A stretch of DNA of 64,000 nt, from the NCBI GenBank assembly GCA_039809385.1, contig JBDHUY010000002.1, positions 64,001 through 128,000 on the forward strand. The letters are read 5' to 3'. This document shows, piece by piece, positions 26,435-64,000 of this stretch. How positions within the stretch are numbered: the stretch's first letter is position 1; the number at the start of each line of letters is the position of its first letter. Made by a program: the position numbers and the translations under genes. Below the pieces are notes generated by a model. It did no database searches and was not told the origin of the DNA. It saw only the letters and a list, made by a program, of their open reading frames with translations. This stretch comes from Candidatus Altimarinota bacterium. GTDB taxonomy: Bacteria > Patescibacteriota > Gracilibacteria > JBDHUY01.

Positions 26435-26487
26435 CCCACGAAAAATTTTTACGTAAATATCCGATCCACGTACCTAAATATTTTTTT

Positions 26488-29221: not shown

Positions 29222-29342
29222 ACATATACTTTTTACATCGTTACACGCTTTCCAGTCTTTACGAGTCAATGGCGTAAACTCAAAGTTCAAATGTCAAAAT
29301 AAACTCAAAAGCTTATACTGAAAGAAAAGAAAGCATCAACGT

Positions 29343-29963: not shown

Positions 29964-30547
29964 AATTTCAATGCCTTTCAAATTCAGCTACCAAAAGAAA
30001 TCACAATATTAAAAAACAAGACGGATCAATATTGTAACGGATGCTGGATAAGCCTCCATGACCGTAGAGGAGTAAAGGGATATATACTTTCGGACAGCCT
30101 TAGAAAAACGGATGCGTCCAGTTCGTTGTGTCATTCGATCTTTTTTGAAGGTCACATAAAATATTATAAAAACATATATTGAAATTCTGTCATTTTTTTG
30201 TTACTATGAAAGTGAGCTAGTATTCGTGAGCTCGACTTTCGGGGACGTGGCATCGAACGGACGATCCGTTCATGGATACATTCTTGGATACACGCTTGCC
30301 AGGAGGAGAATTTCCACGGGATACATCCCGAAAGAAAAACCAATACACAAGGTCTTTGAAAAATAGGCGAACAAGGAAGAAAGGAGTCGGGAGAGGGGAG
30401 TTCAGAGAGCAAAGATCATCCGTATTCATATCTGCCGAATCTCTATAAAGCGTAAAGAGTTAGAAAAACTCCTTGCCTGACAGTTCATCCATCATTCTTT
30501 GTTCGAAAGATGTGTTTCTTTATATTTTTTGAAAACGAAAAACAAAC

Positions 30548-33311: not shown

Positions 33312-33405
33312 AAGACGGACAAAAAGATGAAAAGTATGTTCTCTTATGGCATAAACCATACTATATTTCAGACTTTCTCTCAATCGTTCGTTCTTGCACG
33401 TACTG

Positions 33406-34287
33406 TCATATACGATTATCCCACGAAAACGAGCAGTGAGTTTGATCATCGCAAACCGCTTCTATCGTGCCGAATTGATCGGTCCGGTAGCTTTGGATAT
33501 CGTGTTCCTCGAATCGGTCCAGAATTTCGGTATTGGGATGTTTAAATTTGTTATTTTTGCCGACAGAGATCGTCGCAAACTTTGGGTTCGCGTTATATAA
33601 CAACAAGTTACTGCTGGAAGTTTTGCTGCCGTGATGTCCGGCTTTCAGTATCAGACTTTGAATATCGTACCCCTGATAGAGGAGTGCCTGCTCGAGCGGT
33701 TCTTCCATGTCCCCGGTAAATAAGACGTGGGTATCTCCATACAAAAGCCGAAAAACGACCGACGTATCGTTGATCATATCGTCCCGCACTTTCCGATTCT
33801 CCAAACTGCGTACCGGCGCCAGAATATCCAAATACAGACCCGGCTCGATTTCTATATCCCGCCCGGCCCGCGCGATCAATATGCGGCTTTTAGCGGCTAA
33901 CTGTTTGAATCGTGCATAGGCTTTAGTATCGCTTTCGACCCCGCTATACAGTACCATGGGGATCTCGTACCGTTCCATAACAGATATCAGCCCTTCCACG
34001 TGATCGGCATGCGGATGCGTGAGTACGACCATATCGATTCGAGAGCGAAAGAAACCCAGTTTTTCGGGAAGTACTTGTAAAATCCCGTCCCCCGGTCCTC
34101 CGTCTACCAGAATGTATTTTCCCCGGGGTGTCTGAATGAGCGTGGCGTCGCCCTGTCCGATATTGAGAAAGTAGAGATGCAACCGTCCGTCGGGCAGTGT
34201 AAACTCGAATACGAGAAATAGTATGAGCAGCAGGGAAGCCAGCACGTACGGGATCAACCAACGACGGGGGAGAAATGAGAGTTTCAT
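33406..34287 (-). CDS. ComEC/Rec2-like metallo-beta-lactamase domain protein
   Basis: IGQGDA, LVDGGP, THPHADHVEG, NDTSVV, FTGDME, KAGHHGSKTSS, HPN, RTDQFG. Confidence 0.92.
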   Translation of the reverse strand: MKLSFLPRRWLIPYVLASLLLILFLVFEFTLPDGRLHLYFLNIGQGDATLIQTPRGKYILVDGGPGDGILQVLPEKLGFFRSRIDMVVLTHPHADHVEGLISVMERYEIPMVLYSGVESDTKAYARFKQLAAKSRILIARAGRDIEIEPGLYLDILAPVRSLENRKVRDDMINDTSVVFRLLYGDTHVLFTGDMEEPLEQALLYQGYDIQSLILKAGHHGSKTSSSNLLLYNANPKFATISVGKNNKFKHPNTEILDRFEEHDIQSYRTDQFGTIEAVCDDQTHCSFSWDNRI

Positions 34288-48238: not shown

Positions 48239-48856
48239 ATGAAAACAGCTGCTACATTACAGAGTATATCAGATCTTCTGGAACATACCATTGTTCCTCA
48301 TCTACAGCGTATCGATGCAAAGTTAATGGAGCACGACCGACGGTTTGATGCAATCGAAAAAAGGTTAGATCAGCATGATAAGCGTTTTGAGAGAATTGAA
48401 AAAAGATTGGATGAACATGACCGGCGCTTTGATCAACTTGAGAAAAGGTTGGATGAACATGACCGGCACTTTGATCAACTTGAAAAAAAATTAGACGGGC
48501 ACGGTAAACAGTTTGTCCTTTTGAATAAACAATTAAAGGAAGTAAGAGAGAATCAGGACACTCTGGAGTTTTTACTACGTGATACTCATGCCCGGATGAT
48601 CCGTGTCGAACAAGATGTGTCCGGATTGAAAGACGAACTTTTTTCTTTGAAAGACTGGGTGACGGGTCGCATAACCATCCTGGAAGACGAACTGAAACTG
48701 GTAGTAGCTCGATTGGCCGATCTGCATGACAAGCTGGAAGGCTTTACTGTACAGGATTATCGCGAAACGAGACACCGCGTCTATGGGTTATCGTTGCGGT
48801 TAGATGTACTTCAAAATGAGGTAAAAGCGCTGAAAGCTAAAAAAGCCGAGGACTAG
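48239..48856 (+). CDS. coiled-coil protein with 14-aa tandem repeats
   Basis: Repeats of EHDRRFDQLEKRLD type. Confidence 0.8.
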   Translation: MKTAATLQSISDLLEHTIVPHLQRIDAKLMEHDRRFDAIEKRLDQHDKRFERIEKRLDEHDRRFDQLEKRLDEHDRHFDQLEKKLDGHGKQFVLLNKQLKEVRENQDTLEFLLRDTHARMIRVEQDVSGLKDELFSLKDWVTGRITILEDELKLVVARLADLHDKLEGFTVQDYRETRHRVYGLSLRLDVLQNEVKALKAKKAED

Positions 48857-49074
48857 AAGTCTTGCATATGTCGAACAGTTTTTTGAATGCGCACATCGGC
48901 TTCCAGGATCTTTTTTTGTTTGCGCTGATCTTCTTCCTGCAGAAGCGTATAGAGCGTTTCGAGCTGATCCGAGGATAATGAAGATAGACGCTCTAGTAAA
49001 GTCTGCTTGGCTTCAGGGTTCAAAGAAGATTGGTACAGTAGTTTGGCAAATCGAATAGAAATATCGGTTTTCAT
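48853..49074 (-). CDS. small helical hypothetical protein
   Basis: Directly downstream of the 1191-aa gene and similar to the 52931..53248 product. Confidence 0.65.
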   Translation of the reverse strand: MKTDISIRFAKLLYQSSLNPEAKQTLLERLSSLSSDQLETLYTLLQEEDQRKQKKILEADVRIQKTVRHMQDF

Positions 49075-49092
49075 GGAAAGCAACGTAAAAAG

Positions 49093-52000
49093 TTATTGAA
49101 CAGGCGGTGCAGGCGCAGCCGGAAGAGGGGTGGGAAGTTCGGGATCGGCCTGAATCTGTAGAGACGGATCGAGCTCGTGGGCCGGCTGGTCTTTGGTGTC
49201 GAAAAAATATTCCACGCCGGTCTTTGCCAAAGCCAATGCGTCAACCGCAATAGTACCCGTAACGGCCATTCCGGAGATTTTTTGAGCCTTAGCTAAGTAA
49301 TCTTTGATTTTTGCAAAACCTCCAATATCTTTGGCGAGTGAAACAATGCGAGGAAAAACACCTTCGGCCGCCCGGATGATCTTTTCTGATTTTACACCGG
49401 CTCTCACCAGAGTTTCCCCAAGATTAAAAGCGGCATATCCGGCTACACCGCCAGCACCGGCAGCGGGACTGGTAGCTACACCAAAAAATGTCGACAGTGT
49501 GTCCGTTGCCAAACTATAGGTACCAAATGCGACTCGCGACCAGCGGCTCCATCCCTCGACCTGTTTCCCTGTGACAATTTCTTGTCCTGTAATGACGGTG
49601 TACCAGTCGGATACACCGAAAGGGCTCATGACATCCAGAATAACTTGTAATACATCCAATCCAACTTCTTGAATGATAGATCCCAATTCTTTGACTACTT
49701 TATCCTCCTTTGATTCTTTATTGATATTATATAAATCGAAAGCAACCGTAGCGGCACCTAATACAAGCGCCATTTTACCGCGACCTTTCATTTCGCGCAT
49801 CAGGGCCTTCACCCCTTTGCCTTTGGCCAGGTCTTCAGACAAAACTTGCTGGAATAATTTCTTCTCATCGGCAGTCATGCCGGACACGCTGCGATTGAGT
49901 GATGTAACCGAGCTATTCATGCGGTTACGAATAGATTTCAACTCATCGGAGACCTCTTTCTCAAATATTTTTATCTGATCTAGCGTTGCTCCGTTCGATA
50001 CTATGCGCGTTCTTTCCAACAAAGCTTTTTCCAGGAATATATCGGCTTCCTGGGAAGCGTTTTTTAACGCATTGATCCGCTCCTGCATCGGGAGCCGTTC
50101 AAACGCGTCGGTATCGTGCAAAGTTGAGGAGAGAGATGTTTTCATGGTCTGATAGTCCCGTCCTAATCGACCGGAAGCTCGCAGCTCCTGATCACTCATT
50201 TCCCGCAACATATCATCGGTAATCTCCGCCTGGGTAATGTTGGGGTTGCCGGTATGAGCTTTGGCCTTATCCAGAAGATCGGGGTCGGTTTTCAATCGCT
50301 CCATGTGGTTTTGAACGAGTCTTTTCTCGGTATCGCTAAGAACCTGCGATCCGGGCAAGTTGCTCTGCAAGACGTTCGTCGCTTTGAAGGAATCATCGTT
50401 CAAAGCTTTGGCGAACTCTTGGTCTTTTAATACATCATTTATATTGGTTTTGGCCCAGTTTTTGTATTTTGCCAACTCTTGTTCAAGTGCGGGACTGGGA
50501 GAAAGTTTGTAAGCTTCTTGTAATGACCTTGTACGGGCAGAGATAAAGTTCTTGGCGTATTTCATCTTGAGAAGCTTAAGATCATCCAATGAATAGGCCG
50601 ATGTAGCGTAATTCTTTAGTTTTCCGGCCTTCGTCGTCTCTGCTTCAAGATCTTTCCAGCGAGCATTGAATTTTTCATACTGATTTCTATAATGCTGAGC
50701 CAGATCTTCATAGCCCTGCAAGCGCACTTTGGGATTGCTGAACTTTGCCTGCATCCAGGCGTACGAATCTTGTGGGACTCTGTAGGCACGTTCGGCCATC
50801 CGGATATTGCCTTTCACAAACTCGATGGGGAAGATAAGTCCTTTCCCTACTCCTTTTACCAAAGCTTTCGGTAACGATTCCCCTGCCCTGAGCGCTTTGC
50901 TGCCATCTTTGAGACTGTAATACATAATAAACGGAGCCGTATTGGCTACAGCAACCCCAGCCAGTGCGGTATAACCGTACTCCTGCCCGTCGGTACGCAA
51001 TTGAAGTACATCGCTGATGGTATTGGTAAGTGCGCTCCAGGTGGTAAGGTACAAGGCTTTTACGCCGTCAAATAAGACGACGGTTCCTCCCTGTATGGCG
51101 ATATAAAGACCATCTTCCTCGCAAGCTTCGATCAGATCGGCAGAAAACTCGAACGGATGTTCGGCGATACTGCCGGGCCCGTACGGATATTTTTCGGACA
51201 GTTTTTTAAAACCAGGCTTATCTCCTATCACATTTTTAACGTCACTCCACATATCTTTGCCCATTTGGATATATGGATCCAGTGATTTGAAAACGAAAAG
51301 AGACACGAATTCGGTACTGAGAATATCCTGGGGGATCTCTTCCTTTTTGATCTTCCCGTCCTGATACAGACAGTAGAGTGAAAATATACCCAGCCCAAAC
51401 AGAAACGACTCGGTTTTACATTTTCGTAATAGCAGATACAAGACTCCGGCTTTGGCGCCGGTTTTGGCGATATCGGCAACTTGTCCGGTGACTTCCTGAC
51501 TCGTAAAACCTTCTTTGAGCATATGCATCAGCAGAGTTACTACATTCAGGCTCTCGATATCTTCGCGGGTCGGTACCATGCTCCCGAGCAGCGGAATTTG
51601 CTTGATATCTTCGTAGAATTTACCGGTTTTATCGACGAGATAGCTTTTACTGTTCTGTAAGAATCCGTTCAGCGCTTCTACCAAGGTTCCGTCCTGTAAG
51701 AGAGTGGTGATCTCTTTCCCTATGCCGGTCAAAAATTCCTGGCCGTTAATAACTTTCAGTGTTTCCTGCAGTTCTTTCGGGAAAAAATCGTCGGCTACTG
51801 GGACCGTAATTCCCAGAATCTTGAGCCCGCAATAGACTCCGAAAGCCACGGCAGTATATTTTACACCCTTTCCTGCCACACCGACGGCTTTCTTCCCAAG
51901 CGATGCGGCCAGAAAAGGAGCATCCAATAACTTTTTGCCGATCATGTAGAGCATCACTCCCCCACCAGCAATCCCGGCGGTATTGACGATACCCTTGAGT

Positions 52001-52668
52001 ACTGGCGGGAATGCGAAACCGGGCACTTCTTTGCCTGCCAGGGCAGTACCTACTTTGTCTTCACCCAGTTCTTTTACGACCGTATCGAGGTCTTCCGGTT
52101 TGATGTGATTGAGAACCTCGGCATCGACTCCGACTTTCCCCAACACACCGGCCAATTCGGTTTTACTCGCTTCAAACGATGTTTTGAAACCATCGCTTTT
52201 GATAATTTCTGAACCGGTTTCTTTCAAATCCGCAACGGAGGTGGGTACGGCATCCAGTGTACCGGTGAGTTTTCCCACCCGCTCGGCTGCCGCTTCGACG
52301 CCTAATACTCCCATGGTCGAGCCCAAGATCCATTTCCCCAGATCGTCGGCATAATCCCCAAATATATCGGTAAATCCCAAATATTCGGCCTGGACATATT
52401 CCCATAACAGATTGGTCTTAGCTTCTTTATCAGCTTTGTTTGAAGACATAATGACGCCTGCTGTTTCCATAAACGTCAACTTCAGCGAATCGGCTTTCTG
52501 TTTGACGAGTTCGCCTAGCGTCATGGAGGCTTCGGAGCCGTTTTGAAGTTTCTCGTATTCTTCCTGAACTTTGACCGGATCCAGTACGTTTTTGGCTTCG
52601 ACCAGTTTTTCAGTTTTTTCTTTGAAAGATTTTCCTTTTTCGACGATGGAAGTAATGGGGTTGGACAT
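49093..52668 (-). CDS. large membrane-active protein with pre-toxin TG (PT-TG)-like domain
   Basis: Several Gly/Ala-rich hydrophobic helices. LDVMSPFGVSDWYTVITGQEIVTGKQVEGWSR resembles the PT-TG consensus. Confidence 0.7.
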   Translation of the reverse strand: MSNPITSIVEKGKSFKEKTEKLVEAKNVLDPVKVQEEYEKLQNGSEASMTLGELVKQKADSLKLTFMETAGVIMSSNKADKEAKTNLLWEYVQAEYLGFTDIFGDYADDLGKWILGSTMGVLGVEAAAERVGKLTGTLDAVPTSVADLKETGSEIIKSDGFKTSFEASKTELAGVLGKVGVDAEVLNHIKPEDLDTVVKELGEDKVGTALAGKEVPGFAFPPVLKGIVNTAGIAGGGVMLYMIGKKLLDAPFLAASLGKKAVGVAGKGVKYTAVAFGVYCGLKILGITVPVADDFFPKELQETLKVINGQEFLTGIGKEITTLLQDGTLVEALNGFLQNSKSYLVDKTGKFYEDIKQIPLLGSMVPTREDIESLNVVTLLMHMLKEGFTSQEVTGQVADIAKTGAKAGVLYLLLRKCKTESFLFGLGIFSLYCLYQDGKIKKEEIPQDILSTEFVSLFVFKSLDPYIQMGKDMWSDVKNVIGDKPGFKKLSEKYPYGPGSIAEHPFEFSADLIEACEEDGLYIAIQGGTVVLFDGVKALYLTTWSALTNTISDVLQLRTDGQEYGYTALAGVAVANTAPFIMYYSLKDGSKALRAGESLPKALVKGVGKGLIFPIEFVKGNIRMAERAYRVPQDSYAWMQAKFSNPKVRLQGYEDLAQHYRNQYEKFNARWKDLEAETTKAGKLKNYATSAYSLDDLKLLKMKYAKNFISARTRSLQEAYKLSPSPALEQELAKYKNWAKTNINDVLKDQEFAKALNDDSFKATNVLQSNLPGSQVLSDTEKRLVQNHMERLKTDPDLLDKAKAHTGNPNITQAEITDDMLREMSDQELRASGRLGRDYQTMKTSLSSTLHDTDAFERLPMQERINALKNASQEADIFLEKALLERTRIVSNGATLDQIKIFEKEVSDELKSIRNRMNSSVTSLNRSVSGMTADEKKLFQQVLSEDLAKGKGVKALMREMKGRGKMALVLGAATVAFDLYNINKESKEDKVVKELGSIIQEVGLDVLQVILDVMSPFGVSDWYTVITGQEIVTGKQVEGWSRWSRVAFGTYSLATDTLSTFFGVATSPAAGAGGVAGYAAFNLGETLVRAGVKSEKIIRAAEGVFPRIVSLAKDIGGFAKIKDYLAKAQKISGMAVTGTIAVDALALAKTGVEYFFDTKDQPAHELDPSLQIQADPELPTPLPAAPAPPVQ

Positions 52669-52930
52669 GGGAAAAGGAGAATTACAAATTATTAATTATG
52701 GAATTATTAATGATTTTCAAGTTCAAATGACAAAGCTCAAATTTCAAAATAAACCCGAAATCCAAATATACAATGGTACATGAAGATCGAATACTGAAAC
52801 ATGTGCGATAGAAACTTATGGAAATTTGTAGAAATTTATAGAGATTCATTGTTTTCGTTTCAACTTTTGACATTTGAGCTTTGAAATTATTTTGTCATTT
52901 GGATTTTGAACTTTGACATTCTTGTCTATG

Positions 52931-53248
52931 TTATCTTCCCCCGGCTACTTGCTTGAACTTTTCCATCATCTCCTGTTCGACGACTTTTTGACGGATCAGT
53001 TCTCCCAAAGTTCGCAGGTTTTCGCGAATCAGCGTATCTTTCAGATCAAGCAGAATGTCATATCCCAGTATAGGTAAAGGTTTCACATAGAGCTCTTTTT
53101 TAGATTCGGAGAGGAAGAGCGAATGCCGGATGATTTTTTCCAAAAACTCGCGCATCTCTTCTTTTTTCTTCCGGTCGGTGGTGTCGTACTTTACCGCCTC
53201 GGAGAGCACGGAAATGGTTTGGCGGATGGTTCCTTTGGCGATAGACAT
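52931..53248 (-). CDS. small helical hypothetical protein
   Basis: 105-aa ORF upstream of the PT-TG gene. Confidence 0.7.
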   Translation of the reverse strand: MSIAKGTIRQTISVLSEAVKYDTTDRKKKEEMREFLEKIIRHSLFLSESKKELYVKPLPILGYDILLDLKDTLIRENLRTLGELIRQKVVEQEMMEKFKQVAGGR

Positions 53249-53620
53249 GGGGAAGAAGTTAGTATTTAGTATGGGGTATTATGTATTAGGTATAGGGCAG
53301 GCCAGACTAGGTTGTCATGCCGGCTTGTGCGTGACTTGCTGCAATTGGTCATCCTGGCTTGTCCAGGATCCGGGTAGGGGTTGGACAAGCGTGAATGGGA
53401 ATAGTGTTCGCTGTATTGCCTTGTTAGGATGCGTACTTTTTAGATACCGCTTATGAGAAGATATATCTGAACTGTAGAACGAGGCTGGGACCATTGAGAA
53501 AAGGTATAATGTGCCAATAAAGCTTTCTATCAAGCTACGAGAGTCTAAGGATTCCCCACGCCACGAGGGCGGGGCAGGCGGGCAGGCCAGAATAATAGAT
53601 ACTGTGCTTTACTAACGCTC

Positions 53621-56098
53621 TTAAACCTTCACGAATGCAGCATTTTCTCCTTCGATGGTAATCTGTGATTCTCCCTTAGACATCTTTGTCAAATTGGAGT
53701 CAAAGACTTCTTTTTTTATCTGTGGTTTTTTATCAATCTTTTGATCACCGAAAAGCGGAACACTCACATTTCCCTGAACATGCAGCATGAGTGATCCGTC
53801 ATTCTGAAAAGTTATTTCGGTAATACTTAGGGCACTGCCCAAAGCCTGTAATTGATACGTATTGTTATTCATCGTTAATTTCGAATCACTAAAATTGAAA
53901 ATTCCGACCCGTGACGTCCCCTCAAGAGATACCGCAAATTTTATAGTCCCCGAATTAAACGTCTTTCCTTTCAAACTGTCGAGAGTAACAGCATCCGATA
54001 ACGCCTTGATCTGTTCTCGTTCGCCTGCCGTAGCTTCGTGGTAAATCCAGGAGTTACCGGTTTTTTCGGCGACAAAATAATTCTCGGCAGGTTTTTTGCG
54101 GTGGGCTATAAAGCGGTTCTCGTCCCATTTGCGGTGATCCCATTCGTCATTCATGACCGTCCATTCGTTTTTATCGTATCCGGGTGGAAACTCGCTCGGG
54201 TTCGTTTTTATTTGTAAGTGGGCCAAAATTTCGGTTTCGACTTTGGCGGCATCGAGTTTTTCGACCGGTTTCTCCTTGCTTTCAAGACGGAAGTAATCAG
54301 TAGTGGTGCCGGTAACGCGCCTGGCGTACAACATATTGTTGTGAAAAGAATATTGATACGGTTTGTTGGCGACATTCATCCAGGCAGCATGTTGCTGGGA
54401 CTCCCGGGTCTTCAGGTCGGTAAGTTCATCATTACTGAGAAACGCTTCTTTCTGCAACAGATCGTTTTGCAGCTTTTCGACAGTAAAGTCATTGAGCGAG
54501 GCATACGATATCGCATCGCCTTCTTTTTTGGCAGCCAGCGAGGTGGATTGCACGGTCAGCGGATTTAGTTCCTGGATATTCAAACTTCTGTCGGTTGCAT
54601 CGCTTTTGATCCAAACTTTAAATTGACGCTCTCCCAGCCGAAACAAGAGATTGAAGTATCCGTTTTCCTCGCGAATATTGTTCGCTACGTCTTTATAATT
54701 GAGATGGCCCTGGAGTTTGGCGGCAACGTCTTCGAACAAAAATTCATAGACTTTCTTTTGGGCATCGTTGAGCTTCTCGGCCTCTATCGCCTTACCGGGC
54801 AATTTATCGGCATCCGGCAAGGTTGCATCGAACTTATCGTCCCCCGGGTCGGCTCCGCCGGTCTCTTTATCCAGTCCGAACATTTTAAAAATGCTTTTGA
54901 ACATGGCGCCGATGAACGGGAGTTCTACCAGCGTTTTACGCAAGTCAGCCGGAATCATATTGTTTAACCACGATTTTCCCACGGCAAACACATTTTTTAT
55001 ATCACCGATAAACCCGCGAATCTTGCCCTTGAAATCAGTATTCTCGACCACCTGGTTTTCGCTTTTATCTCCTTCACGCGTCGTTTTTATGACGGGATTG
55101 GGTATGTCAGTGTTGGTTTTGGCTAAAAAAGCATCCAGGCTTTTTCGATCGCGATCATCCTGGACCGTTTTGTCGAGGCGATAGTAATGCGTCGCTTCTT
55201 CACCGTGTTCGTCGTGAACCATGCCGAATACATGGCGCAATTCATGCTGGAGCGTTCTGGCAATATTCTTCGAATCTTGGTTGATATAAATACGACTCGT
55301 TCCATTTTTTTCGGTAACCGTCATGCCGTCAAAGGCTTCTTGTTCTCCATTTTTGAAAAGGTTTTTACCTTGAGGATCGTTTCGGTCTGGCGGCGCCATA
55401 AAAACTGTAACCCGGGCATTCTCGTTTGCTTCGGGCTGCATGATAGCTTCAAAGCGATGTTCTCCCCGCTTTGTTTGTCCGAAAGAAAAAGTCGAAATAT
55501 CCGGGTCTGTGAGCAAGGATTGTAAGCTTTGAGCCGAAGGATCTAACTGGTATTGAACTCCATACACAAATTGCAAGGTAGCATCGTTCCGCTGTCGTAC
55601 GTCAAAAGTATCAAACTGAATGATTTCTTTGGAAACTCCTCGTACACCGAGTGCATAATAACGCCCCTGAGAATCGATACCGTCGATAATCGGTAAGTTA
55701 TTGCGCAAAAAAGCCAGATCCTGGGAAGTCAGATCCAGCTGGAAGGTATTTTTAAACAGCGCGATCAGACTGGTATCGATGATTTGTTGACGTTCTTGCG
55801 GCGACTGAATGCCTTTCAACTTTTCACGCAATTCGGTTTTATACAAAGATTCGATTTCGAGTTTCTGCTGATTGACAAGTTCCTGTTCGACTTGATCTCG
55901 GGATGCCTGTAAGGTAATCGATTGTTTGAGACTTTGAAGTTCGTTTTTCTCAAGGGTAATAACCTGCGCTTTTTCCTGTTCTTTCAAGTCGGTCACTTCT
56001 TGGCGAAAACGCTGATAAATCTCCTTCAAGGCTTGCTTGGGAGCTGTCGTTTGGGCGACCACTTCAGATAATGACTGGGTTTCGGGTTGGGGGGACAT
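53621..56098 (-). CDS. large protein with zincin metallopeptidase motif
   Basis: LQHELRHVFGMVH (HExxHxxGxxH); no signal peptide. Confidence 0.75.
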   Translation of the reverse strand: MSPQPETQSLSEVVAQTTAPKQALKEIYQRFRQEVTDLKEQEKAQVITLEKNELQSLKQSITLQASRDQVEQELVNQQKLEIESLYKTELREKLKGIQSPQERQQIIDTSLIALFKNTFQLDLTSQDLAFLRNNLPIIDGIDSQGRYYALGVRGVSKEIIQFDTFDVRQRNDATLQFVYGVQYQLDPSAQSLQSLLTDPDISTFSFGQTKRGEHRFEAIMQPEANENARVTVFMAPPDRNDPQGKNLFKNGEQEAFDGMTVTEKNGTSRIYINQDSKNIARTLQHELRHVFGMVHDEHGEEATHYYRLDKTVQDDRDRKSLDAFLAKTNTDIPNPVIKTTREGDKSENQVVENTDFKGKIRGFIGDIKNVFAVGKSWLNNMIPADLRKTLVELPFIGAMFKSIFKMFGLDKETGGADPGDDKFDATLPDADKLPGKAIEAEKLNDAQKKVYEFLFEDVAAKLQGHLNYKDVANNIREENGYFNLLFRLGERQFKVWIKSDATDRSLNIQELNPLTVQSTSLAAKKEGDAISYASLNDFTVEKLQNDLLQKEAFLSNDELTDLKTRESQQHAAWMNVANKPYQYSFHNNMLYARRVTGTTTDYFRLESKEKPVEKLDAAKVETEILAHLQIKTNPSEFPPGYDKNEWTVMNDEWDHRKWDENRFIAHRKKPAENYFVAEKTGNSWIYHEATAGEREQIKALSDAVTLDSLKGKTFNSGTIKFAVSLEGTSRVGIFNFSDSKLTMNNNTYQLQALGSALSITEITFQNDGSLMLHVQGNVSVPLFGDQKIDKKPQIKKEVFDSNLTKMSKGESQITIEGENAAFVKV

Positions 56099-56122
56099 GA
56101 TTCGTAAAAGAAAGTTTAACGA

Positions 56123-56995
56123 TTATGCAGCGATTTGATCGGATTTCGCATCAATACGGGTCACATAATTTCGAGTTTCTTCCCGTAAATGAGGATGAAG
56201 CTGGGCATAGGTTTGGGGACGATAGGTACGGATCTTTGCAGCGACTCCATTATGCCCATTGTTATAGCCTGCCAGAGCAAACTTCCAGCGTTCGTCTTCG
56301 GAAGGGGTAATGCCGACAATGCGCAAAGCATTATCGGTCGTATCTTTGACGATCTCTTTCAAATAAAACATGCCCAGCGCAATATTCAATTCGGGATTTG
56401 TGTGCAGAGGATTGCGGGATCTATCACCGGAAAAAAAATCCTGAGGATTGACCGTACCAAACTTTGCTCTCAAATCAGCTGGAAGTTTGGAAAAACATTC
56501 TTTGGCGGTTGCCGGAAGTAACTGACACAGCCCACGGGCATTGGAGCTGCTTACCGCATCGGTGCGAAAGCGGGATTCCTGCCATGCCAACGCCACTGCT
56601 GTTGGAAGAGGAATCCCGAATCTACCGGCGTATTCTTTAAACCACGGCGCATATTTCTCGGGAAGCGTTTCGGAACGAACATCATTGAAATCCCGCTTCA
56701 CCTCTTGTTTGACTTGTTTTTTTTGCTCAGGAGAGAGAGTCGTCTCTTTATCCACTGTTCCCAGTAATTCATTCAGGCTGTCTTCGGAAAATAACTTCTC
56801 AAAGTCCAGTTCATCGCCGGAAAGAACTTTGCCTAAAAAAGCCACCATGATACTCAAAACAGCCGCACCAGACGAATCGGATTTATCGACGTCTTCTTTG
56901 AGGTTTTGCAGTTTTCCTTCGATAAACTGCTGGACCGGCTTAAACGGATTCTTATCGCTCGGTTTCAGCGTTTCTGCGGGATTTTCGACCGACAT
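56123..56995 (-). CDS. lytic transglycosylase (SLT domain)
   Basis: AWQESRF, ARGLCQLLPATA, NIALGMFYL, AGYNNG, ETRNYV. Start at MSVENP. Confidence 0.9.
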   Translation of the reverse strand: MSVENPAETLKPSDKNPFKPVQQFIEGKLQNLKEDVDKSDSSGAAVLSIMVAFLGKVLSGDELDFEKLFSEDSLNELLGTVDKETTLSPEQKKQVKQEVKRDFNDVRSETLPEKYAPWFKEYAGRFGIPLPTAVALAWQESRFRTDAVSSSNARGLCQLLPATAKECFSKLPADLRAKFGTVNPQDFFSGDRSRNPLHTNPELNIALGMFYLKEIVKDTTDNALRIVGITPSEDERWKFALAGYNNGHNGVAAKIRTYRPQTYAQLHPHLREETRNYVTRIDAKSDQIAA

Positions 56996-57546
56996 GATTT
57001 TTTGTTTTATAAAGATAGCTTTTATTCTTTTCATTATACCAAAAAAAGGGCTTGAGTAAAAGCGGTTTTCGAGGAAGATAAAAAGGTGCGTTTTCACACG
57101 AAGCAAAGTGGCAATAGGTCTTAGAACGATATGGTTGTCTGTCACGTTTGCAGTTCTGGCTTGTCCAGAATCCGGAAATGCGTAGGTCATATCAAACCCC
57201 CTTAGTGACGCATACTTCCAAATACAATGAACACCGCACTCGTTCACCACTGCCAAAACCGTAACCGGATTCCGGGCAAGCCGGAATGACGCGAGACAAA
57301 GTTAATTTAACCTTCTCCTCCGACCTCCTAGCCCTCAGTTCAGTGCATGCTTATCAGGGGGAACAAAGCATATATACCGGAGGGCAAGTCTTTGAATTCT
57401 CTGCATTCTGAACTTTCGACTAAGGACTAGGTACTTTGTGCTCTTGCCTTTAGATGACCGTTCTTTTCCCGGGCAGACACGTGGGTCTACCCCAACAGGG
57501 TCTGCGGCTACGGTTTTCCCCAATTCATCATTCATAATTCTGCCTC

Positions 57547-58839
57547 CTATCCCCGGTAGGGCGCCGGCTTCGCGATCCAGGTCACTGGACACGGTTTTTT
57601 ATCGCCGACTTGCTCATGTGAAAGGTTGTATGTTTTGATATTACCAACCTTATTGGCTCCGGGACAACTGGCGATACTGGCCAGACCGGTCGATTCATCC
57701 TCCCAGCCCAGAAAAATGCCGCTGTGATTACCCTTGGCATCAGAACTGTTCTGATTGTTGAGAAAGATCCAGTCGCCGGGTTGCAGCCGACCTCCCCGCA
57801 AATCTTGTACCGAAGGACAGTGATCGCGCGGACAGCCATACCTTCCCGAATAGCCCAGATTACGAAAGACCTCACGATGGGTGAAGCCGGCCGCCTTATA
57901 CACTTTATCAGCCCAATCCCAGCAGTGAGCGCCTCGGAAATTCTCTTTACCCGCCAGACTTTTTGCAGCCAACACGATCTTTTGACCATATTCGGAAGTC
58001 GATTCTAAACTTCTGCGTAGTTCTTCATCGGTAAAGAGGTTCGTACTGGCAAGTGCGGTTTCGTTCAAGCCGGAAGCCCGAAGCTCTTCAAGAAATTTAC
58101 GATCGGCTTCGTTTTCGGCATCCTGATCGTAGAGAGTATAATTGAGATTTTTGGACGCATCGCTACTACGAAACTTCTGTTCAAACGATTGATCTACGTT
58201 GCCAAAAGTTACCATATCTCCGGTAAATATCGGAATATACCCTTGTTTATCGTAAAAGCCGCGATTGGTTTGATTTTGCCCCTTGAGACCCAATCTTCTC
58301 TCACTCGTACGGACTTTGGTACGACTTTTAGCTTTCTCTTGAAGACGGTTCAGTTCTTTAGATGAAAGCGTGTTATCTTCGTCTACATCATAGGTATCGG
58401 GCAATGAAACGCTGATCTGTCGGATGGAAGGAGGCAAAAAGTCGGCGGCGCCGATCTCTTTTTCGGCCGTGTAATGGCCCATAAAATCGATTTTTATGCT
58501 CTTTGTGGCGTCAGGATTTTTGTAAAACTCCTGCATTTGTTCAAAACCGTTCTTCTGAGAATTTCCCTTCTGATCTACCAACTCGGCATACAGATAGAGC
58601 AAGGTTCCTTCGTGGCGGTCTTCGAGTCGTATTAGCTGGTCGGCGCTCAAGTTAAGCTCTTTCACGATATCGCGATTGCCTTTTTTAATCTGATCATGAA
58701 GCTTATCTATGACCCCTTCGTCATATTTCTGCACGATTTCTTGTTTGAGGGCAGTCAGAGCTTCGGAGGGGACAACTGTTTCCTTGCTATTCGCCGGTTT
58801 CTTCACTTCGGAAACCGCCGAGGGTGTTTCTGGAGACAT
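57547..58839 (-). CDS. NlpC/P60/CHAP-like cell-wall hydrolase with unknown N-terminal domain
   Basis: HCWDWADKVY (catalytic Cys), LQPGDWIF, HSGIF (catalytic His). Confidence 0.75.
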   Translation of the reverse strand: MSPETPSAVSEVKKPANSKETVVPSEALTALKQEIVQKYDEGVIDKLHDQIKKGNRDIVKELNLSADQLIRLEDRHEGTLLYLYAELVDQKGNSQKNGFEQMQEFYKNPDATKSIKIDFMGHYTAEKEIGAADFLPPSIRQISVSLPDTYDVDEDNTLSSKELNRLQEKAKSRTKVRTSERRLGLKGQNQTNRGFYDKQGYIPIFTGDMVTFGNVDQSFEQKFRSSDASKNLNYTLYDQDAENEADRKFLEELRASGLNETALASTNLFTDEELRRSLESTSEYGQKIVLAAKSLAGKENFRGAHCWDWADKVYKAAGFTHREVFRNLGYSGRYGCPRDHCPSVQDLRGGRLQPGDWIFLNNQNSSDAKGNHSGIFLGWEDESTGLASIASCPGANKVGNIKTYNLSHEQVGDKKPCPVTWIAKPAPYRG

Positions 58840-58933
58840 AGGCACGAAATCATAAAACAAAAGATGTCTCCTCAGTATATCACAAAAAGTCGTTCAAGAC
58901 CAACTATGGCAACGATTATGAAAGGCCATTTCT

Positions 58934-59734
58934 TTACGACAGATTCCATATTTTTTCCGCGGGCAATTTTATATTCTCCGGGCTGATGAGGTCCAGATGT
59001 AAATGGATACCGCTCGGGCCATGAACATGTCCCGTATTGCCCATAACTCCTATAGGATCGCCCCGATTGACACTATCTCCAACATTGAGCTTTGCCAAAA
59101 TACTATCTTCGGCCAAGTGTTTATATATAGTCTTATAGCCATTACCATGGTCAATCTCTACCAAATTGACCGGTCCGCCTTTGACTCCGCCTTTTTTCAA
59201 ACGCGTAACCCTACCCGAATGCATGGCAACAATAACAGGAGTTTTATCAGATTTGGTAGAGACAATATCGCAGCCGGCATGTACGTCGGGCCCGGTTTTT
59301 CGATCGCGATGGTCATGATAGGTGCTTGTTACACCAGCCGAAGAAGGAGATTGTCCTTGTACTGGCCATATGAAATTGTGACGTAAAAAATCTTTGATTT
59401 CCGGCGATATCTTGCCATCGCCTACGGCATACCGTTTTACTTCGGTGACGATCGCATCGGGACTGTTTAAAGGTACAGAAGAAGTATCCGGTGGTGATTT
59501 CTTTTCGTCGCCAAATCCAAAAATAGACGCGATTCTGTTAAGAAAAAGAAGGAGCGGATTCTTCGCATTTTCGGGATTGGAACTTCCCTGTTTCAGATTC
59601 TCCACATGTTCTTGTCCGATCAGTGGAGTCAAGATCATAAAGAGCAGTCCGGTAAGAGCATTGTGGGTTGAATTTGTCACCTCTTTGCGTTTTTCCGAAG
59701 TTGTTTCAGGCGTCGGATTATCTTTTTCGGGCAT
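58934..59734 (-). CDS. M23 family metallopeptidase
   Basis: WPV, HAGCD, VEIDHGNGYKTIYKHL, IGVMGNTG, HLH. Start at MPEKDN. Confidence 0.92.
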   Translation of the reverse strand: MPEKDNPTPETTSEKRKEVTNSTHNALTGLLFMILTPLIGQEHVENLKQGSSNPENAKNPLLLFLNRIASIFGFGDEKKSPPDTSSVPLNSPDAIVTEVKRYAVGDGKISPEIKDFLRHNFIWPVQGQSPSSAGVTSTYHDHRDRKTGPDVHAGCDIVSTKSDKTPVIVAMHSGRVTRLKKGGVKGGPVNLVEIDHGNGYKTIYKHLAEDSILAKLNVGDSVNRGDPIGVMGNTGHVHGPSGIHLHLDLISPENIKLPAEKIWNLS

Positions 59735-60046
59735 GGAAAAAAGTAAGTATCGTTTTAGTATAACGGAAAATACTTCTTTTTTGAAGAAGATCGAGGAAAA
59801 ATGGAACATTTCTTACTAACTAAAATACAAGAAACGCTCAGTCGAAATACGGATTCGACAGCCAAAAATACAATCGTGGTGTCATTGAACCCAGTGAACA
59901 TGCCATGAATATCACCGGATCCTAGTCAGGCCTGGATGACGGATTATGGTAGTATTTTCCAGCCTCATGAAGTGTAACCATCGTTATCAAATGGTGAAGT
60001 TCTAGTTAAGACCTGCATGATGGTCTCCCTCCCAACTTTTAACTTC

Positions 60047-63000
60047 TCACGGCGCCACTAACTGGACATTTAGCTTCTTCAGATATTCTTCGATCCCGGG
60101 AGGGGTATCGGAAACGACACGGGCATCGTAATTTACCTGAACGCTGGAGATATTTTTATCGACTGAAGGATCGCCGACATAGGTACGTACTTCCAATAAT
60201 TTATTTTCACCGATCAGCGAACCGTTAATCGTGAGTTGTTTGGCAACTTTGTCGCCGGTAAATGCGTGTCCCTCTCCATCAATGATAAATATACCGTTCA
60301 TCTGGGATACTTTTTCGCCGATATAGAAATCGCCTTTAGCAATAATCCCGAACGAGGCCAAGCGTCCCTGACTATTGCGTGTTGAGGCATACCGGATATC
60401 GCTCAGGATTCTGACATTCCCGTTCACGATAATCGTAGATCGTTCACTCAATCGTTCGTTTTCGCCAAGATCGATTGTCAGGTCTCCGTTCACCGTATAA
60501 ATCCGGGCATTATCAGGACGTTTTCCTAGCATTTCAAAGTCGGACTCGCTCGTAACCGTATTGGTAAAAGATGTTCCGGTGTTGCGGGTAATATTGGTAA
60601 CCGTATCGCTGACATTCGATGCCAGTTTGGTAGTATCGAATCCCAGATATTGGCCTACGGAGCTTAGGTAGGTCGAAACACGATCGATTGCTTGTCCGGG
60701 AGAAATGATCAGACCGGCTATATTGCGGGCGCTGGTGAGATCCGTACCACCGCTCAGGGCATTGCTCGCCGAGGAGAACATCAGGGCCAGATTTTGAACG
60801 TTGACCGATTCGATACCATCGGGACCTCCGACAAAGAGATTTCCCAGATTTCCGGTGGTCAGAACCGGCTTTGAAACCGTTACATTCGCATAATCGTTAT
60901 TCGTTTGTGTCCGGACTTCATTGGTAATATTGATAAAATCGGTATTGGCTCCCAAGGCGTGACCTTCGAACGTAGTGCGGGCAACGCCTTCATAGGTGAA
61001 AACGATTTGTTCTCCCGGATCCAGATTGGCAACGGTGAAAGAAGGAGTAGTCTGTACAGACGAATCAGTAGGATTGGCAACATTGAAACCCGGATGGTAG
61101 GCAAAACAACCGCTGGTTAAAGAACCGTTGACCAGCGCGGAGCCATTGTTTTCACTGATACAGATCTGATCGGGATATTCGATATATCCTTCAGTGCTGA
61201 ACGCATCTTCGACTCCTTGAACCGGATCGTTATTCCGGAATTTTTTCTTCTGGTAAATATAATCCCGTATTTCAATCGGGATCACTTGTTTCCCAGGGAT
61301 GCTGGTACCGGAAAGATTGGATTTATTTGAAATAACCAGACGGTATTGTACACGCTGATTGTCGCCGGCAATAGCCCGGTCGACGGTTTTTTCGACACAA
61401 CCGCAAGCTTGACATATTTTATTCTGTAAACAATCGTTCAACACATTACAGGACCCTTCCATATTGCCATCGGGGCTACAGGAATCGGCGATACGGTCGC
61501 CGTTGCTATCGTTACAGCGGTTCTGAAACACCGATCGCAAACGACAATCTGCGCTGCAACCGTTTCCATCGTCTCGTGTATTGCCGTCGTCGCATTCTTC
61601 CATCTGTCCCTGACTGTTGGGACGTTGCAATCTGCCATCGCCGCAGCGGGTCACCGGACCGCACTGGGAATCGAACTGCGCATTGTCCTGACAGGAGCCG
61701 AAGCTGGAAAAACAACGCCTACCGGTCTGGCGTTCACACTCGGACTGGGAGGTATACTGGTTGCTGCTACACTGCTGGTTTTGGGTACAGTAGTAATAGG
61801 TTTGGGTAAACGGCCGACAATCACTATTAAACGTACACTCGTTCGAACCGGAACCGCTTACCGTCACGCATTGTTCATTGCGACATTCGCGATGCGACTG
61901 TTGGAACTGGCAGTCGGAATTGAATGTACACGAATTCGATCCCGGTCCGCTAATCGTCACACATTGCTCATTGCGACATTCGCGGTGCGATTGCTGAATC
62001 TGGCAATCGCTATTAAACGTACATAGATTAGAACCGGCGCCACTGACCGTGACACACTGTTCATTACGACATTCGCGATGTGATTGTTGTATCTGACAAT
62101 CATTATTGGAAAGACACAGGTTGGCTCCCGCCCCGCTGACCGAAACGCATTGCTGGTTCCGGCATTCCAGATGAGATTGCGTAACCTGGCAGTCGCTGTT
62201 AAACGTACATTGATTACTTCCGGGGCCGTTGACGGTGACACATTGCTGATTTTGACATTCGCGATGGGTCTGGATTTGACAGTCATTATTGGAAGCGCAT
62301 TGATTGGTGCCGGGACCGTTGACGGTAACGCATTGCTGGTTCTGACACTCTCGATGCGTCTGCGGCGCGCAATCGCTGCTGGAAGCACATTGGTTGGTTC
62401 CGGGGCCGTTTACTATGACGCATTGTTGGTTGACGCATTCTTTATGCGTTTGTATCTGACAGTCGCTACTGGTGGCACATTGATTTGTACCCGGACCGTT
62501 TACCAGGACACACTGCTGATTCACACATTCTTTGTGGGTTTGAGGAGTACAATCTCCATCGAATAAACATAAGTTTGATCCTGCGCCATTGACGACCACA
62601 CATTGATAGTTGATACATTCTTTATGGGTCTGAGGAACACAGTCGCCGTCAAAAGCACATTGATTGGAGCCGGGACCGTTACGGACAACGCACTGATAGT
62701 TAACGCATTCTTTATGGGTTTGAGTCTGACAATCCTGGGTAAAAGTGGAGCACGATGGACCGGTGCCATTGGTAGCACACTGGTCAAACGTTCCATCATA
62801 GTTACTGTCCAAGCACTTTTTCTGAGGGGCCGGACAATCTTGAACCGAGGAACAACTGGGTCCGGTTCCGTTGACGCTACATTGATCGAAGGTTCCATCG
62901 TAATTGCTGTCCAAACACTTCTTCTGCTGGATCGGACAATCGTTGACGCTATTACACGAAGGTCCCGTACCATTGGTCGAACACTGATCAAAAGTTCCGT

Positions 63001-64000
63001 CATAATTGCTGTCAAGACACTTTTTCTGCGGAGTCGGGCAATCCTGGACCGAAGAACAACTGGGCCCGGTTCCGTTCACGCTACACTGATCGAAGGTTCC
63101 ATCGTAATTGCTGTCCAAACACTTCTTCTGCTGGATCGGACAGTCATTGACGCTATTACAGGAAGGTCCAGTTCCGTTGGTCGAGCAGGCATCGAATACC
63201 CCGTCATAGTTGCTATCAAAGCATTTCTTTTGAGGTGGCTGCGGACATTGAGAAAGATTATCGCAGGTTTGAGGCAGATTTCCGTTTACCTGACAAGCAT
63301 CAGCGTAGCCGTCACCATTATTATCATGACAGCGCTTCGGAGGTGGGAGGCATTCATTCACATTGTTACATAGTGGTCCGGTTCCACCTGTTGCACACTG
63401 ATCAAAGGCACCATCATAGTTGCTATCAAGGCACCTCTTCTGGGGTGGCTGGGGACATTGGGAAACGTTCTCACATGTTTGAGGAAGGTTTCCATTTACC
63501 TGACAGGCATCAGCGTAACCGTCACCGTTATTGTCGTGACACCGTTTCGGCGGCGCCGGACATTCGGACGGAGCATTCTGGAGACAGGTGGATTGATTAT
63601 TATAACAACTCTTGCCGGGATTAGCCGATTCACAGGCAGCTTTATCCGGATAAGATTGGGCAGTGAGAGGACAAGAATTACTAGTTTGACAGATGTAGAA
63701 TTGTTTCGGCTGGGGAGAAGTTACTGTATCCGTATAGTCGTTCGAAAGAGAAGCATTAAATCCGCAGTTTGAGGTATAGGTTCGTGAACAGGAAAACGAA
63801 GTAGATCCTGATACTCCGGCCGCAGCCGAAAAATCAGCCCTTACATCGAAACTCCCACTAGTTAATGTTCCCGTAAATGTCTGCGAGGTGCAACCGTTGC
63901 CGGAACACGCAATGCCCGAAGATTTAGAAGTAGTGACAGTAATCGAGTAATTTATTGGACAAGTACATGCAGCAGGGTAAATTACGCCACAACCGTGGGA
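60047..64000 (-). CDS. large Cys-rich repeat surface protein (5' end outside window)
   Basis: Manual check shows the frame stays open from 63361 to 64000 with no stop. It has ~33-aa KCLDSNYDGTFDQC repeats, ~30-aa H(K/R)EC.NQQCV.V.G.G.N.C...DC repeats, a CGDG..EECDDGN myxococcal-type Cys repeat and a DUF11-like KTVD segment. Confidence 0.85.
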   Translation of the reverse strand, partial: SHGCGVIYPAACTCPINYSITVTTSKSSGIACSGNGCTSQTFTGTLTSGSFDVRADFSAAAGVSGSTSFSCSRTYTSNCGFNASLSNDYTDTVTSPQPKQFYICQTSNSCPLTAQSYPDKAACESANPGKSCYNNQSTCLQNAPSECPAPPKRCHDNNGDGYADACQVNGNLPQTCENVSQCPQPPQKRCLDSNYDGAFDQCATGGTGPLCNNVNECLPPPKRCHDNNGDGYADACQVNGNLPQTCDNLSQCPQPPQKKCFDSNYDGVFDACSTNGTGPSCNSVNDCPIQQKKCLDSNYDGTFDQCSVNGTGPSCSSVQDCPTPQKKCLDSNYDGTFDQCSTNGTGPSCNSVNDCPIQQKKCLDSNYDGTFDQCSVNGTGPSCSSVQDCPAPQKKCLDSNYDGTFDQCATNGTGPSCSTFTQDCQTQTHKECVNYQCVVRNGPGSNQCAFDGDCVPQTHKECINYQCVVVNGAGSNLCLFDGDCTPQTHKECVNQQCVLVNGPGTNQCATSSDCQIQTHKECVNQQCVIVNGPGTNQCASSSDCAPQTHRECQNQQCVTVNGPGTNQCASNNDCQIQTHRECQNQQCVTVNGPGSNQCTFNSDCQVTQSHLECRNQQCVSVSGAGANLCLSNNDCQIQQSHRECRNEQCVTVSGAGSNLCTFNSDCQIQQSHRECRNEQCVTISGPGSNSCTFNSDCQFQQSHRECRNEQCVTVSGSGSNECTFNSDCRPFTQTYYYCTQNQQCSSNQYTSQSECERQTGRRCFSSFGSCQDNAQFDSQCGPVTRCGDGRLQRPNSQGQMEECDDGNTRDDGNGCSADCRLRSVFQNRCNDSNGDRIADSCSPDGNMEGSCNVLNDCLQNKICQACGCVEKTVDRAIAGDNQRVQYRLVISNKSNLSGTSIPGKQVIPIEIRDYIYQKKKFRNNDPVQGVEDAFSTEGYIEYPDQICISENNGSALVNGSLTSGCFAYHPGFNVANPTDSSVQTTPSFTVANLDPGEQIVFTYEGVARTTFEGHALGANTDFINITNEVRTQTNNDYANVTVSKPVLTTGNLGNLFVGGPDGIESVNVQNLALMFSSASNALSGGTDLTSARNIAGLIISPGQAIDRVSTYLSSVGQYLGFDTTKLASNVSDTVTNITRNTGTSFTNTVTSESDFEMLGKRPDNARIYTVNGDLTIDLGENERLSERSTIIVNGNVRILSDIRYASTRNSQGRLASFGIIAKGDFYIGEKVSQMNGIFIIDGEGHAFTGDKVAKQLTINGSLIGENKLLEVRTYVGDPSVDKNISSVQVNYDARVVSDTPPGIEEYLKKLNVQLVAP

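Follow-up and report, generated by a model that had tools for sequence, protein, structure and literature searches.

A 64,000-nucleotide stretch of a Candidatus Peribacteria genome (hereafter the window; positions 64,001 to 128,000 of contig JBDHUY010000002.1, assembly GCA_039809385.1) carries a chromosomal, compositionally native and lineage-specific cluster of lytic-enzyme genes. A first-pass annotation of the sequence had described seven co-oriented genes at positions 48853–59734 and had read them as an island of signal-peptide-less cell-wall hydrolases and toxin-like proteins directed against a host. All seven minus-strand open reading frames (ORFs) were found at exactly these coordinates and read open with translation table 11; the gene run, the domain calls and the lack of signal peptides stood up, whereas the idea of an island did not, and those of a single system and of a pilus-based export route were weakened. 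We tentatively, and with somewhat less than even confidence, interpret the products as outward-directed enzymes acting at the contact face with another cell, and consider host attack by the cluster plausible. The features concerned, the seven genes being given in order of transcription, are:

58934..59734, minus strand: M23 metallopeptidase (266 amino acids, aa; Pfam PF01551)
57547..58839, minus strand: two-part NlpC/P60-like wall hydrolase (430 aa; predicted fold)
56123..56995, minus strand: SLT-type lytic transglycosylase (290 aa, MSVEN start; Pfam PF01464)
53621..56098, minus strand: metzincin-motif orphan, the "zincin" of the first-pass annotation (825 aa; HExxHxxGxxH)
52931..53248, minus strand: small 105-aa protein (a homologue adjoins the PT-TG gene in one same-family genome)
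49093..52668, minus strand: PT-TG giant (1191 aa; PT-TG at aa 1018–1047)
48853..49074, minus strand: hydrophilic 73-aa protein, its gene next downstream after the PT-TG gene (from ORF and start)
52669..52930, no strand: repeat-built spacer between the 105-aa gene and the PT-TG gene (262 bp)
60047..64000 (to ~64114, past the window end), minus strand: Cys-rich repeat protein, the upstream neighbour (1355 aa; classic signal peptide)

An outward-directed function is favoured by the presence of three different peptidoglycan-cutting folds inside 3.7 kb. In the entire genome (1.87 Mb, 26 contigs, 95% complete) about seven wall-hydrolase genes were found, the inventory comprising two M23, one SLT, no Pfam NLPC_P60, one sub-cut-off CHAP and two Amidase_3 genes; by a rough estimate, the chance of three of these ~seven genes falling within 3.7 kb would be <1e-3. 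The M23 and SLT assignments of the first-pass annotation both pass the Pfam cut-offs, with catalytic motifs readable in the translations. PF01551 matches residues 176–274 of the 291-aa form of the M23 protein (E 3.5e-16; 59.6 bits, cut-off 28.7), which measures 266 aa from its MPEK start and 291 aa from the first ATG at 59809, and the zinc-binding HxxxD and HxH motifs that define the family are intact. Its N-terminal ~150 residues are hydrophilic and unique among the relatives searched, whose housekeeping M23 genes match only the catalytic part (aa 151–252). PF01464 matches the SLT protein with an E-value of 2.2e-18 (66.3 bits, cut-off 21.3), and the catalytic Glu-Ser pair is present; the domain might act as a transglycosylase or as a muramidase. 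It is the sole SLT protein found in this genome, and 15 of 41 relatives carry an SLT. When the island proteins were searched against their own genome by tblastn, no paralogue was detected except a second M23, which is of housekeeping type and has a clear membrane helix. Elsewhere in the genome, a second possible wall-hydrolase neighbourhood was noted at C16:12360–18619, where an Amidase_3 gene lies 6 kb from a sub-cut-off CHAP match in a 1158-aa ORF.

The third hydrolase could not be identified on the basis of sequence profiles. It has no Pfam or NCBIfam match, PF00877 finds nothing in the genome, a profile of its family retrieves nothing from the PDB sequences, and the protein itself gives one weak match there (7cfl, E 0.0074); a word-indexed search returned only the protein and one 241-aa fragment. 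An AlphaFold2 (AF2) model calculated from an eight-sequence family alignment (predicted local distance difference test score, pLDDT, 72.1) nevertheless contains at aa ~280–430 a domain for which nearly every one of the best VIA-align rows is a hydrolase of NlpC/P60 or CHAP type (Z 6.8–8.9), and Foldseek reports probabilities of 0.89–0.99, albeit at E ≥ 0.02 (8er5_B, 0.99, E 0.03). The catalytic Cys and His are kept in 6/6 NlpC-type members of the family alignment. The earlier NlpC/P60-like call thus holds by a papain-like predicted fold and a conserved Cys/His pair, but not by any sequence-profile match. This C-terminal domain follows a conserved N-terminal module (aa ~60–240) that belongs to no known family. 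Six of the eight aligned sequences have the module fused to the NlpC/P60-like domain, the other two to an SLT domain that passes the Pfam cut-off. One relative genome (G007) carries an NlpC-type and an SLT-type member of this module family in tandem. Families of effectors and lysins are built in this way, with exchangeable domains attached to a module that stays the same. A hidden Markov model of the module found no second copy in this genome; in the fold search the C-terminal domain filled the match list, so that the module was barely probed. As a separate observation, the NlpC-like gene lies in three genomes of one family (G049, G175 and G060) within a row of pyrimidine-biosynthesis genes, between two that look pyrE-like and pyrF-like from their N-terminal sequences, which is an odd place for a wall hydrolase.

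By Kyte-Doolittle (KD) hydropathy windows on the predicted proteins, all seven products lack a hydrophobic core at the N-terminus. The absence of signals carries weight because the upstream Cys-rich neighbour has a textbook signal peptide (KD10 2.7, compared with ≤1.3 in the NlpC-like family) and the second M23 a clear membrane helix; this neighbour serves as an internal control, its sequence indicating that the organism uses ordinary Sec signals. The NlpC-like protein has no hydrophobic segment at all (maximum KD19 0.66), as is the case in 8/8 members of its family, and none is found in the 825-aa metzincin-like protein; hydrophilic N-termini are also present in 14/15 members of the PT-TG family. 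A 15-residue hydrophobic stretch (aa 26–40) in the M23 protein and a marginal 19-residue stretch (aa 42–60, KD 1.64) in the SLT protein each follow a hydrophilic leader. The earlier statement that none of the proteins begins with a Sec or Tat signal is accordingly right with regard to N-terminal signal peptides and has to be qualified for M23 and SLT, which have possible signal anchors.

The 1191-aa protein was previously described as a membrane-active PT-TG protein. PT-TG is indeed carried by its small family, in which 21 of 37 members match the profile (best E 4.6e-8; 24.0 bits in the homologue of G006), but the protein itself stays under the cut-off (16.9 against 23.5 bits). The family counts 60 representatives at E ≤ 1e-3 among 1.84 billion; it was found in 5/41 relatives, and 5/5 of its loci are from Candidatus Peribacteria. 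Weakly hydrophobic Gly-rich segments recur in the family near residues 235, 276, 540–585 and 1055–1140. The AF2 model is almost all helix (pLDDT 64.4); in the fold search no row, and no toxin fold, reached E ≤ 0.001, the rows returned being helical repeats of a generic kind (TM ≤ 0.12); word-indexed and PDB sequence searches found nothing. A protein-atlas lead to unnamed clusters was discarded because its score of 0.82 is too low to count. The C-terminus differs in one distant member (P0033). According to the available text of a survey, PT-TG is a marker of secreted antagonistic proteins linked to antagonism by type VI secretion systems (T6SS), type VII secretion systems (T7SS) and contact-dependent inhibition (CDI), while many PT-TG proteins are without a toxin domain and may function otherwise (PMC13483458). 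Patescibacteria occur nowhere in its main text, the supplementary tables being a separate matter.

Among the small flanking proteins, the 105-aa product has a 45% identical homologue between the SLT gene and the large gene of one same-family genome (G001). It has no Pfam match, and a complex prediction with residues 1–300 of the 1191-aa protein gave scores of 0.26 and 0.01, against a mark of 0.32. The 73-aa product contains no hydrophobic segment; neither a family match nor a relative was found for it, and the five other loci of the large gene hold no conserved counterpart. The 825-aa protein between the SLT gene and the 105-aa gene displays the motif HELRHVFGMVH (HExxHxxGxxH; aa ~285–295), and four of the five profile rows over aa 257–322 are sub-threshold metzincin rows (Astacin, E 0.023; three Reprolysin families, E 0.059–0.13). 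The earlier zincin call thus has the motif and these sub-threshold rows in its favour, and no profile above threshold. The protein is present in 1/201 class genomes, a word-indexed search of 5.8 billion clustered proteins found only itself, and the sole row against PDB sequences (E 0.87) is meaningless. A Peptidase_M85 lead from the protein atlas was rejected, its score of 0.77 lying below the level that counts.

Since the NlpC-like, metzincin-like and PT-TG proteins are devoid of an N-terminal hydrophobic helix, they would need a Sec-independent route. The first-pass annotation had considered a machine resembling type IV pili (T4P) or type II secretion systems (T2SS). T2SS cargo, however, first crosses via Sec or Tat, and we know of no established T2SS- or T4P-type export of signal-less cargo. 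This candidate is also weakened by the finding of a VirB4/TraC-like ATPase (C14:44061–46265; P-loop_TraG, E 6e-26), encoded on another contig than the cluster and present in 39/41 relatives with 44–74% identity, and of four VirD4-like matches to T4SS-DNA_transf, one of them clearly over the cut-off, in large membrane P-loop proteins on C7, C4, C21 and C11. Judged from these genes, a type IV secretion system (T4SS) appears to be the likelier route. The genome search for secretion ATPases that had been suggested thus yielded T4SS-type but no T7SS-type enzymes: FtsK_SpoIIIE has one match over the cut-off, in a 778-aa ORF, there is no EssC-type multi-FtsK ATPase, no WXG100 protein scores over the cut-off in this 95% complete genome (best E 0.095), and LXG gave no match in the Pfam scans. 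A T7SS route is accordingly not supported. As far as the available text of a survey goes, a distinct, mostly relaxase-less T4SS of Gram-positive type extends across the Patescibacteria; in Gracilibacteria its components are scattered and VirD4 homologues are abundant away from virB4, and the VirB1-like hydrolases of the phylum, sometimes with M23, mostly do not adjoin virB4 (PMC12102498). The isolated virB4-like gene and the scattered VirD4-like matches described here agree with this picture for Gracilibacteria (PMC12102498). The same text relays that a cultured Saccharimonadia strain cannot grow epibiotically without its T4SS genes and likewise needs a virB4-adjacent peptidase and lysozyme for this growth (PMC12102498).

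Separately, a pilus locus was noted at window 21.8–31.1 kb, 17 kb from the cluster. It comprises a PilB-like ATPase (21833–23104), a second T2SSE ATPase (27863–29221), a pilin with N-methylation motif (30548–31144) and an unusual 1085-aa protein in which a SpoIIE-type phosphatase is fused to a PilC-like platform protein (23177–26434); a 2844-aa NHL-repeat protein is encoded directly upstream of this set, the whole spanning window 13154–31144.

We envisage the following scenario for an outward-directed function. The M23 and SLT proteins would reach the surface as N-in anchored enzymes by means of their short hydrophobic helices, inserted by Sec or YidC, whereas the NlpC-like, metzincin-like and PT-TG proteins would use the Sec-independent route, for which the class-wide VirB4/VirD4-type (Gram-positive-conjugation-like) type IV apparatus, and not the pilus, would be the best candidate. 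The enzymes would then act extracytoplasmically at the contact face with another cell and might jointly cut cross-links, stem peptides and glycan strands in the wall of the partner; the weakly hydrophobic Gly-rich PT-TG protein might act on the membrane, with the 105-aa protein as its presumed partner. A further-reaching version assumes a Peribacteria-specific class of Sec-independent envelope-breaching proteins, consisting of the module hydrolases and the PT-TG giant, which have hydrophilic, Pro/Glu/Lys-rich N-termini, are exported by the phylum's repurposed relaxase-less T4SS so as to breach the host's wall and membrane, and are gathered here with M23, SLT, two protease-like proteins and an adhesin-like giant as a 23-kb arsenal. 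In this full form we regard the proposal as distinctly unlikely.

Independent of its function, the cluster is compositionally native. Its G+C content of 0.458 is close to that of the genome (0.457) and its tetranucleotide distance ranks at the 42nd percentile of 301 windows, no tRNA is present in the window, and the sole integrase-family gene of the window (32403–33449) is 15 kb from the cluster. A Pfam scan of the 44 window ORFs found no phage structural, T6SS or T7SS family, as had been stated before; plasmid families did not turn up either, nor did capsid, tail, terminase or relaxase families or an integrase family next to the cluster. The PT-TG family has no relative in IMG/VR contigs, and the mobile-element kin of the SLT protein amount to one plasmid and two phage records with weak partial matches. 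The term island, in the sense of a transferred element, is therefore not supported, given the native composition, the missing tRNA and the lack of phage or plasmid kin of note.

Nor is the run clearly one effector system. Large spacers separate the NlpC-like from the SLT gene (551 bp), the zincin from the 105-aa gene (372 bp) and the 105-aa from the PT-TG gene (262 bp), all other pairs being tightly packed; a promoter-like site with an extended -10 element is located at 57060–57033, just upstream of the SLT gene, and a G+C-rich hairpin follows the zincin stop codon. The 262-bp spacer consists of short inverted and dispersed repeats, with 17 short matches elsewhere in the genome. Because of these spacers, the promoter-like site, the hairpin and the repeat-built spacer, we infer at least three transcription units, namely M23 with the NlpC-like gene, SLT with the metzincin-like gene, and the 105-aa, PT-TG and 73-aa genes. 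The NlpC-like and PT-TG genes also stand alone elsewhere, which speaks likewise against the single system of the first-pass annotation. All three long spacers (52669–52930, 53249–53620 and 56996–57546) carry 20–43 nt sequences recurring elsewhere in the genome. Contigs from sludge that cover the cluster are 99% identical, with breaks confined to the spacers, and none of them forms a junction without the cluster; at the 52669–52930 spacer the assemblies break or skip 97–123 bp. That they break and skip exactly there points to a small repeat element, dispersed in the genome and variable between strains. The DNA sequencing runs containing the locus are activated-sludge runs of one study, with small shares elsewhere.

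Several observations weigh against a jointly acting, outward-directed set. As judged from the genomes compared, the cluster is not conserved as a unit: in tblastn searches (E ≤ 1e-3) of 16 loci of PT-TG or NlpC-like homologues, no other island protein adjoins, except the 105-aa protein in the same-family genome G001, the only one in which the SLT, 105-aa and PT-TG genes recur together. A synteny comparison, as the first-pass annotation had advised, thus recovers these three genes in a single genome and not the cluster. In five other Peribacteria loci the PT-TG gene is alone among gatB-, recG- and tyrS-type genes, and in six loci the NlpC-like gene is found in a pyrimidine operon or near recA- and purL-type genes. 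Next to the virB4-like gene no recognised T4SS partner is present; downstream of it come unknown genes for proteins of 533 and 400 aa, with mraW after them. TrbL/VirB6 was not found in the genome. The best-conserved stretch of the 1191-aa family is the C-terminal ~350 aa after PT-TG, and no conserved small ORF of the kind expected for an immunity gene lies downstream of the large gene in 5/5 other loci; for both reasons the 1191-aa protein does not appear, from its sequence family, to be a typical polymorphic toxin. The metzincin assignment of the 825-aa protein, at motif level, is suggestive at most. The M23 and SLT proteins may be plain Sec-inserted, membrane-anchored enzymes of housekeeping type, exported conventionally, because wall hydrolases of Gram-positive T4SS usually have this topology, a hydrophilic leader followed by a single membrane helix, in the text available (10.1101/2024.02.15.580431). 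Proline-rich, hydrophobic-poor N-termini distinguish the four enzymes and both families from 1210 background ORFs (3–4 prolines in residues 2–20 of each enzyme; 3 or more in 7.6% of the background), yet they constitute a lead only, because the measure was set post hoc against crude first-ATG starts, the kin are non-independent, and similar N-termini are seen in proteins of the cytoplasm, among them a RecA-like ORF and the VirB4-like ATPase. Finally, the sequencing-run search lists no RNA run containing the locus.

The strongest rival explanation, which we consider rather improbable, is a space-making set for the cell's own wall, i.e. a "split PrgK" that opens this wall for the T4SS, for the type IV pilus or for division, the other genes being unrelated neighbours. 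PrgK of pCF10 combines LytM, SLT and CHAP domains with an intracellular N-terminal part and one transmembrane helix and, according to the text available, opens the donor's own wall (10.1101/2024.02.15.580431). The cluster resembles PrgK and the VirB1-like MPF-FATA hydrolases in the LytM/M23, SLT and CHAP/NlpC-P60 folds and in the hydrophilic leader and short hydrophobic helix that the M23 and SLT proteins have in place of a cleaved signal (10.1101/2024.02.15.580431); the host phylum carries T4SS of the same Gram-positive-type class, with VirB1-like hydrolases that sometimes have M23 and are mostly apart from virB4 (PMC12102498). The pilus locus 17 kb away and the native composition fit as well. 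The differences, however, are considerable. Three separate genes replace one protein, the M23 motifs are intact where the LytM domain of PrgK, as far as described, is degenerate, the island genes are on another contig than virB4, and the NlpC-like enzyme has no anchor. In the other two enzymes the hydrophobic stretch is short (15 residues) or of marginal hydropathy (KD 1.64), a housekeeping M23 with a clear membrane helix and two Amidase_3 genes are available in the genome anyway, and the metzincin-like and PT-TG proteins would be left unaccounted for. Moreover, the island hydrolases are patchily distributed, whereas VirB4 is near-universal in the class: with VirB4 in 39/41, SLT in 15/41 and the NlpC-like family in 20/201 genomes, the machine does without SLT and NlpC-like enzymes in most genomes searched, which weakens this rival. 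Because they are patchy while the ATPase is found in 39/41 relatives, the island enzymes are not obligatory assembly factors of the T4SS machine or of growth. We regard the island genes as accessory and fast-evolving, a pattern that fits interaction genes better than core wall growth.

According to a second and unlikely alternative there is no common system at all: fast-evolving genes would have been preserved side by side by chance, their co-orientation would reflect replication-strand bias, and the NlpC-like and PT-TG proteins would be cytoplasmic or membrane proteins involved, for example, in wall-fragment turnover or envelope organisation. The single occurrence of both families in housekeeping neighbourhoods and the division of the cluster by large spacers with repeat elements and by the hairpin are in line with this view, as is the lack of enrichment of promoter-like sites (15 compared with 18.5 ± 3.9 in shuffles); the 1191-aa model matches no toxin fold, and many PT-TG proteins are described as being without a toxin domain (PMC13483458). 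Such a chance assembly is difficult to reconcile with three of ~seven wall-hydrolase genes inside 3.7 kb, with the SLT, 105-aa and PT-TG genes together in a second genome, and with the tandem of NlpC-type and SLT-type members in G007, which echoes the NlpC–SLT adjacency found here. Furthermore, we know of no cytoplasmic polymer substrate for SLT and NlpC/P60 folds.

It is very improbable that the cluster is what is left of a conjugative element or of the lysis or tail module of a prophage: signal-less lysins are typical of phages, the M23 and SLT domains match PHROG endolysin, tail-lysin and tape-measure families at the domain level, and a BFVD search with the NlpC-like model returns CHAP lysins of phages, none of them at E ≤ 0.001, but the other eight proteins scanned (five of the island, three neighbours) have no PHROG match, the 44 window ORFs contain no phage structural, relaxase or adjacent integrase family, and the composition, the tRNA and IMG/VR results, the distance of 15 kb to the integrase-family gene and the weak partial SLT kin all speak against it. 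Endolysins and tail lysins are comparable in being signal-less and modular, with a non-catalytic module and an NlpC/P60, CHAP, SLT or M23 domain; in the present case, however, no phage genes are nearby, and the module family occupies chromosomal housekeeping contexts in several genomes.

The outward-directed reading invites comparison with further groups of secreted proteins. The X-Tfe effectors of the bacteria-killing Xanthomonadales T4SS also include signal-less peptidoglycan hydrolases, and handover by VirD4 and injection into a neighbour are, in the sources at hand, X-Tfe features. These effectors are characterized by a C-terminal XVIPCD recognition domain and by cognate immunity genes, whereas the island proteins show no common C-terminus by eye and no immunity-like partner was identified for them. 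In the PT-TG polymorphic toxins associated with T6SS (VgrG), T7SS (LXG/WXG) and CDI, PT-TG is likewise positioned near the C-terminus of a large signal-less protein flanked by small genes, as far as the survey text describes them (PMC13483458). In contrast, the 1191-aa family has no known trafficking domain, a conserved region after PT-TG and no conserved immunity gene. The LXG toxins of T7SS with their Lap partners provide a parallel for small genes up- and downstream of a large helical signal-less PT-TG protein, but the genome has no EssC-type multi-FtsK ATPase, no WXG100 protein over the cut-off and no LXG match.

Neither effectors that hydrolyse cell walls nor the wall hydrolases of T4SS are new as such. 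New aspects are the Peribacteria setting, the N-terminal module common to two hydrolase types, the PT-TG family with a conserved C-terminus and the clustering of the genes. In the literature searched, neither a cluster of this kind nor PT-TG proteins from Peregrinibacteria or Peribacteria were found described, although the supplementary tables of surveys may list such genes. The way in which CPR (candidate phyla radiation)/Patescibacteria epibionts breach or tap their hosts has yet to be explained, and their widespread T4SS are without known cargo; the signal-less hydrolases, the shared N-terminal module and the Peribacteria-restricted PT-TG protein are concrete candidates in this respect. If the enzymes instead served the cell's own wall, they would represent a "split PrgK" arrangement of T4SS wall hydrolases in the phylum. 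On either interpretation the idea of a transferred island is corrected, and the T4SS takes the place of the pilus in the secretion hypothesis.

More genes belong to the co-oriented run than first reported: it extends over 11 genes and ~8 kb past the window end up to lepA on the opposite strand. The 1355-aa Cys-rich protein (full ORF C2:124047–128114) is built from two kinds of Cys-rich repeats ~40 residues long and a non-repetitive C-terminal half; it has no Pfam match and could be an adhesin. The remainder of its gene is followed outside the window, at C2:128356–136156, by three co-oriented genes for proteins of 1392, 694 and 430 aa. The 1392-aa orphan has two hydrophobic segments and was found in 2/41 relatives, one match being weak and stop-containing; no family match was obtained for the 694-aa protein, and the 430-aa protein displays trypsin-like His/Asp/Ser motifs with a sub-threshold Trypsin_2 row (E 0.029).

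Two minor features of the locus may be added. The stretches before start codons of island genes (59735–59760, 53249–53275 and 52669–52695) contain no Shine-Dalgarno-like purine run, and several of the start codons follow pyrimidine-rich runs ending in CC(C). At the opposite end, a convergent plus-strand gene (48239–48856) shares its last 4 bp with the end of the gene for the 73-aa protein and encodes a 205-aa coiled-coil protein composed of a repeated "EKRLD-HD-RF" unit, for which only generic coiled-coil matches were obtained.

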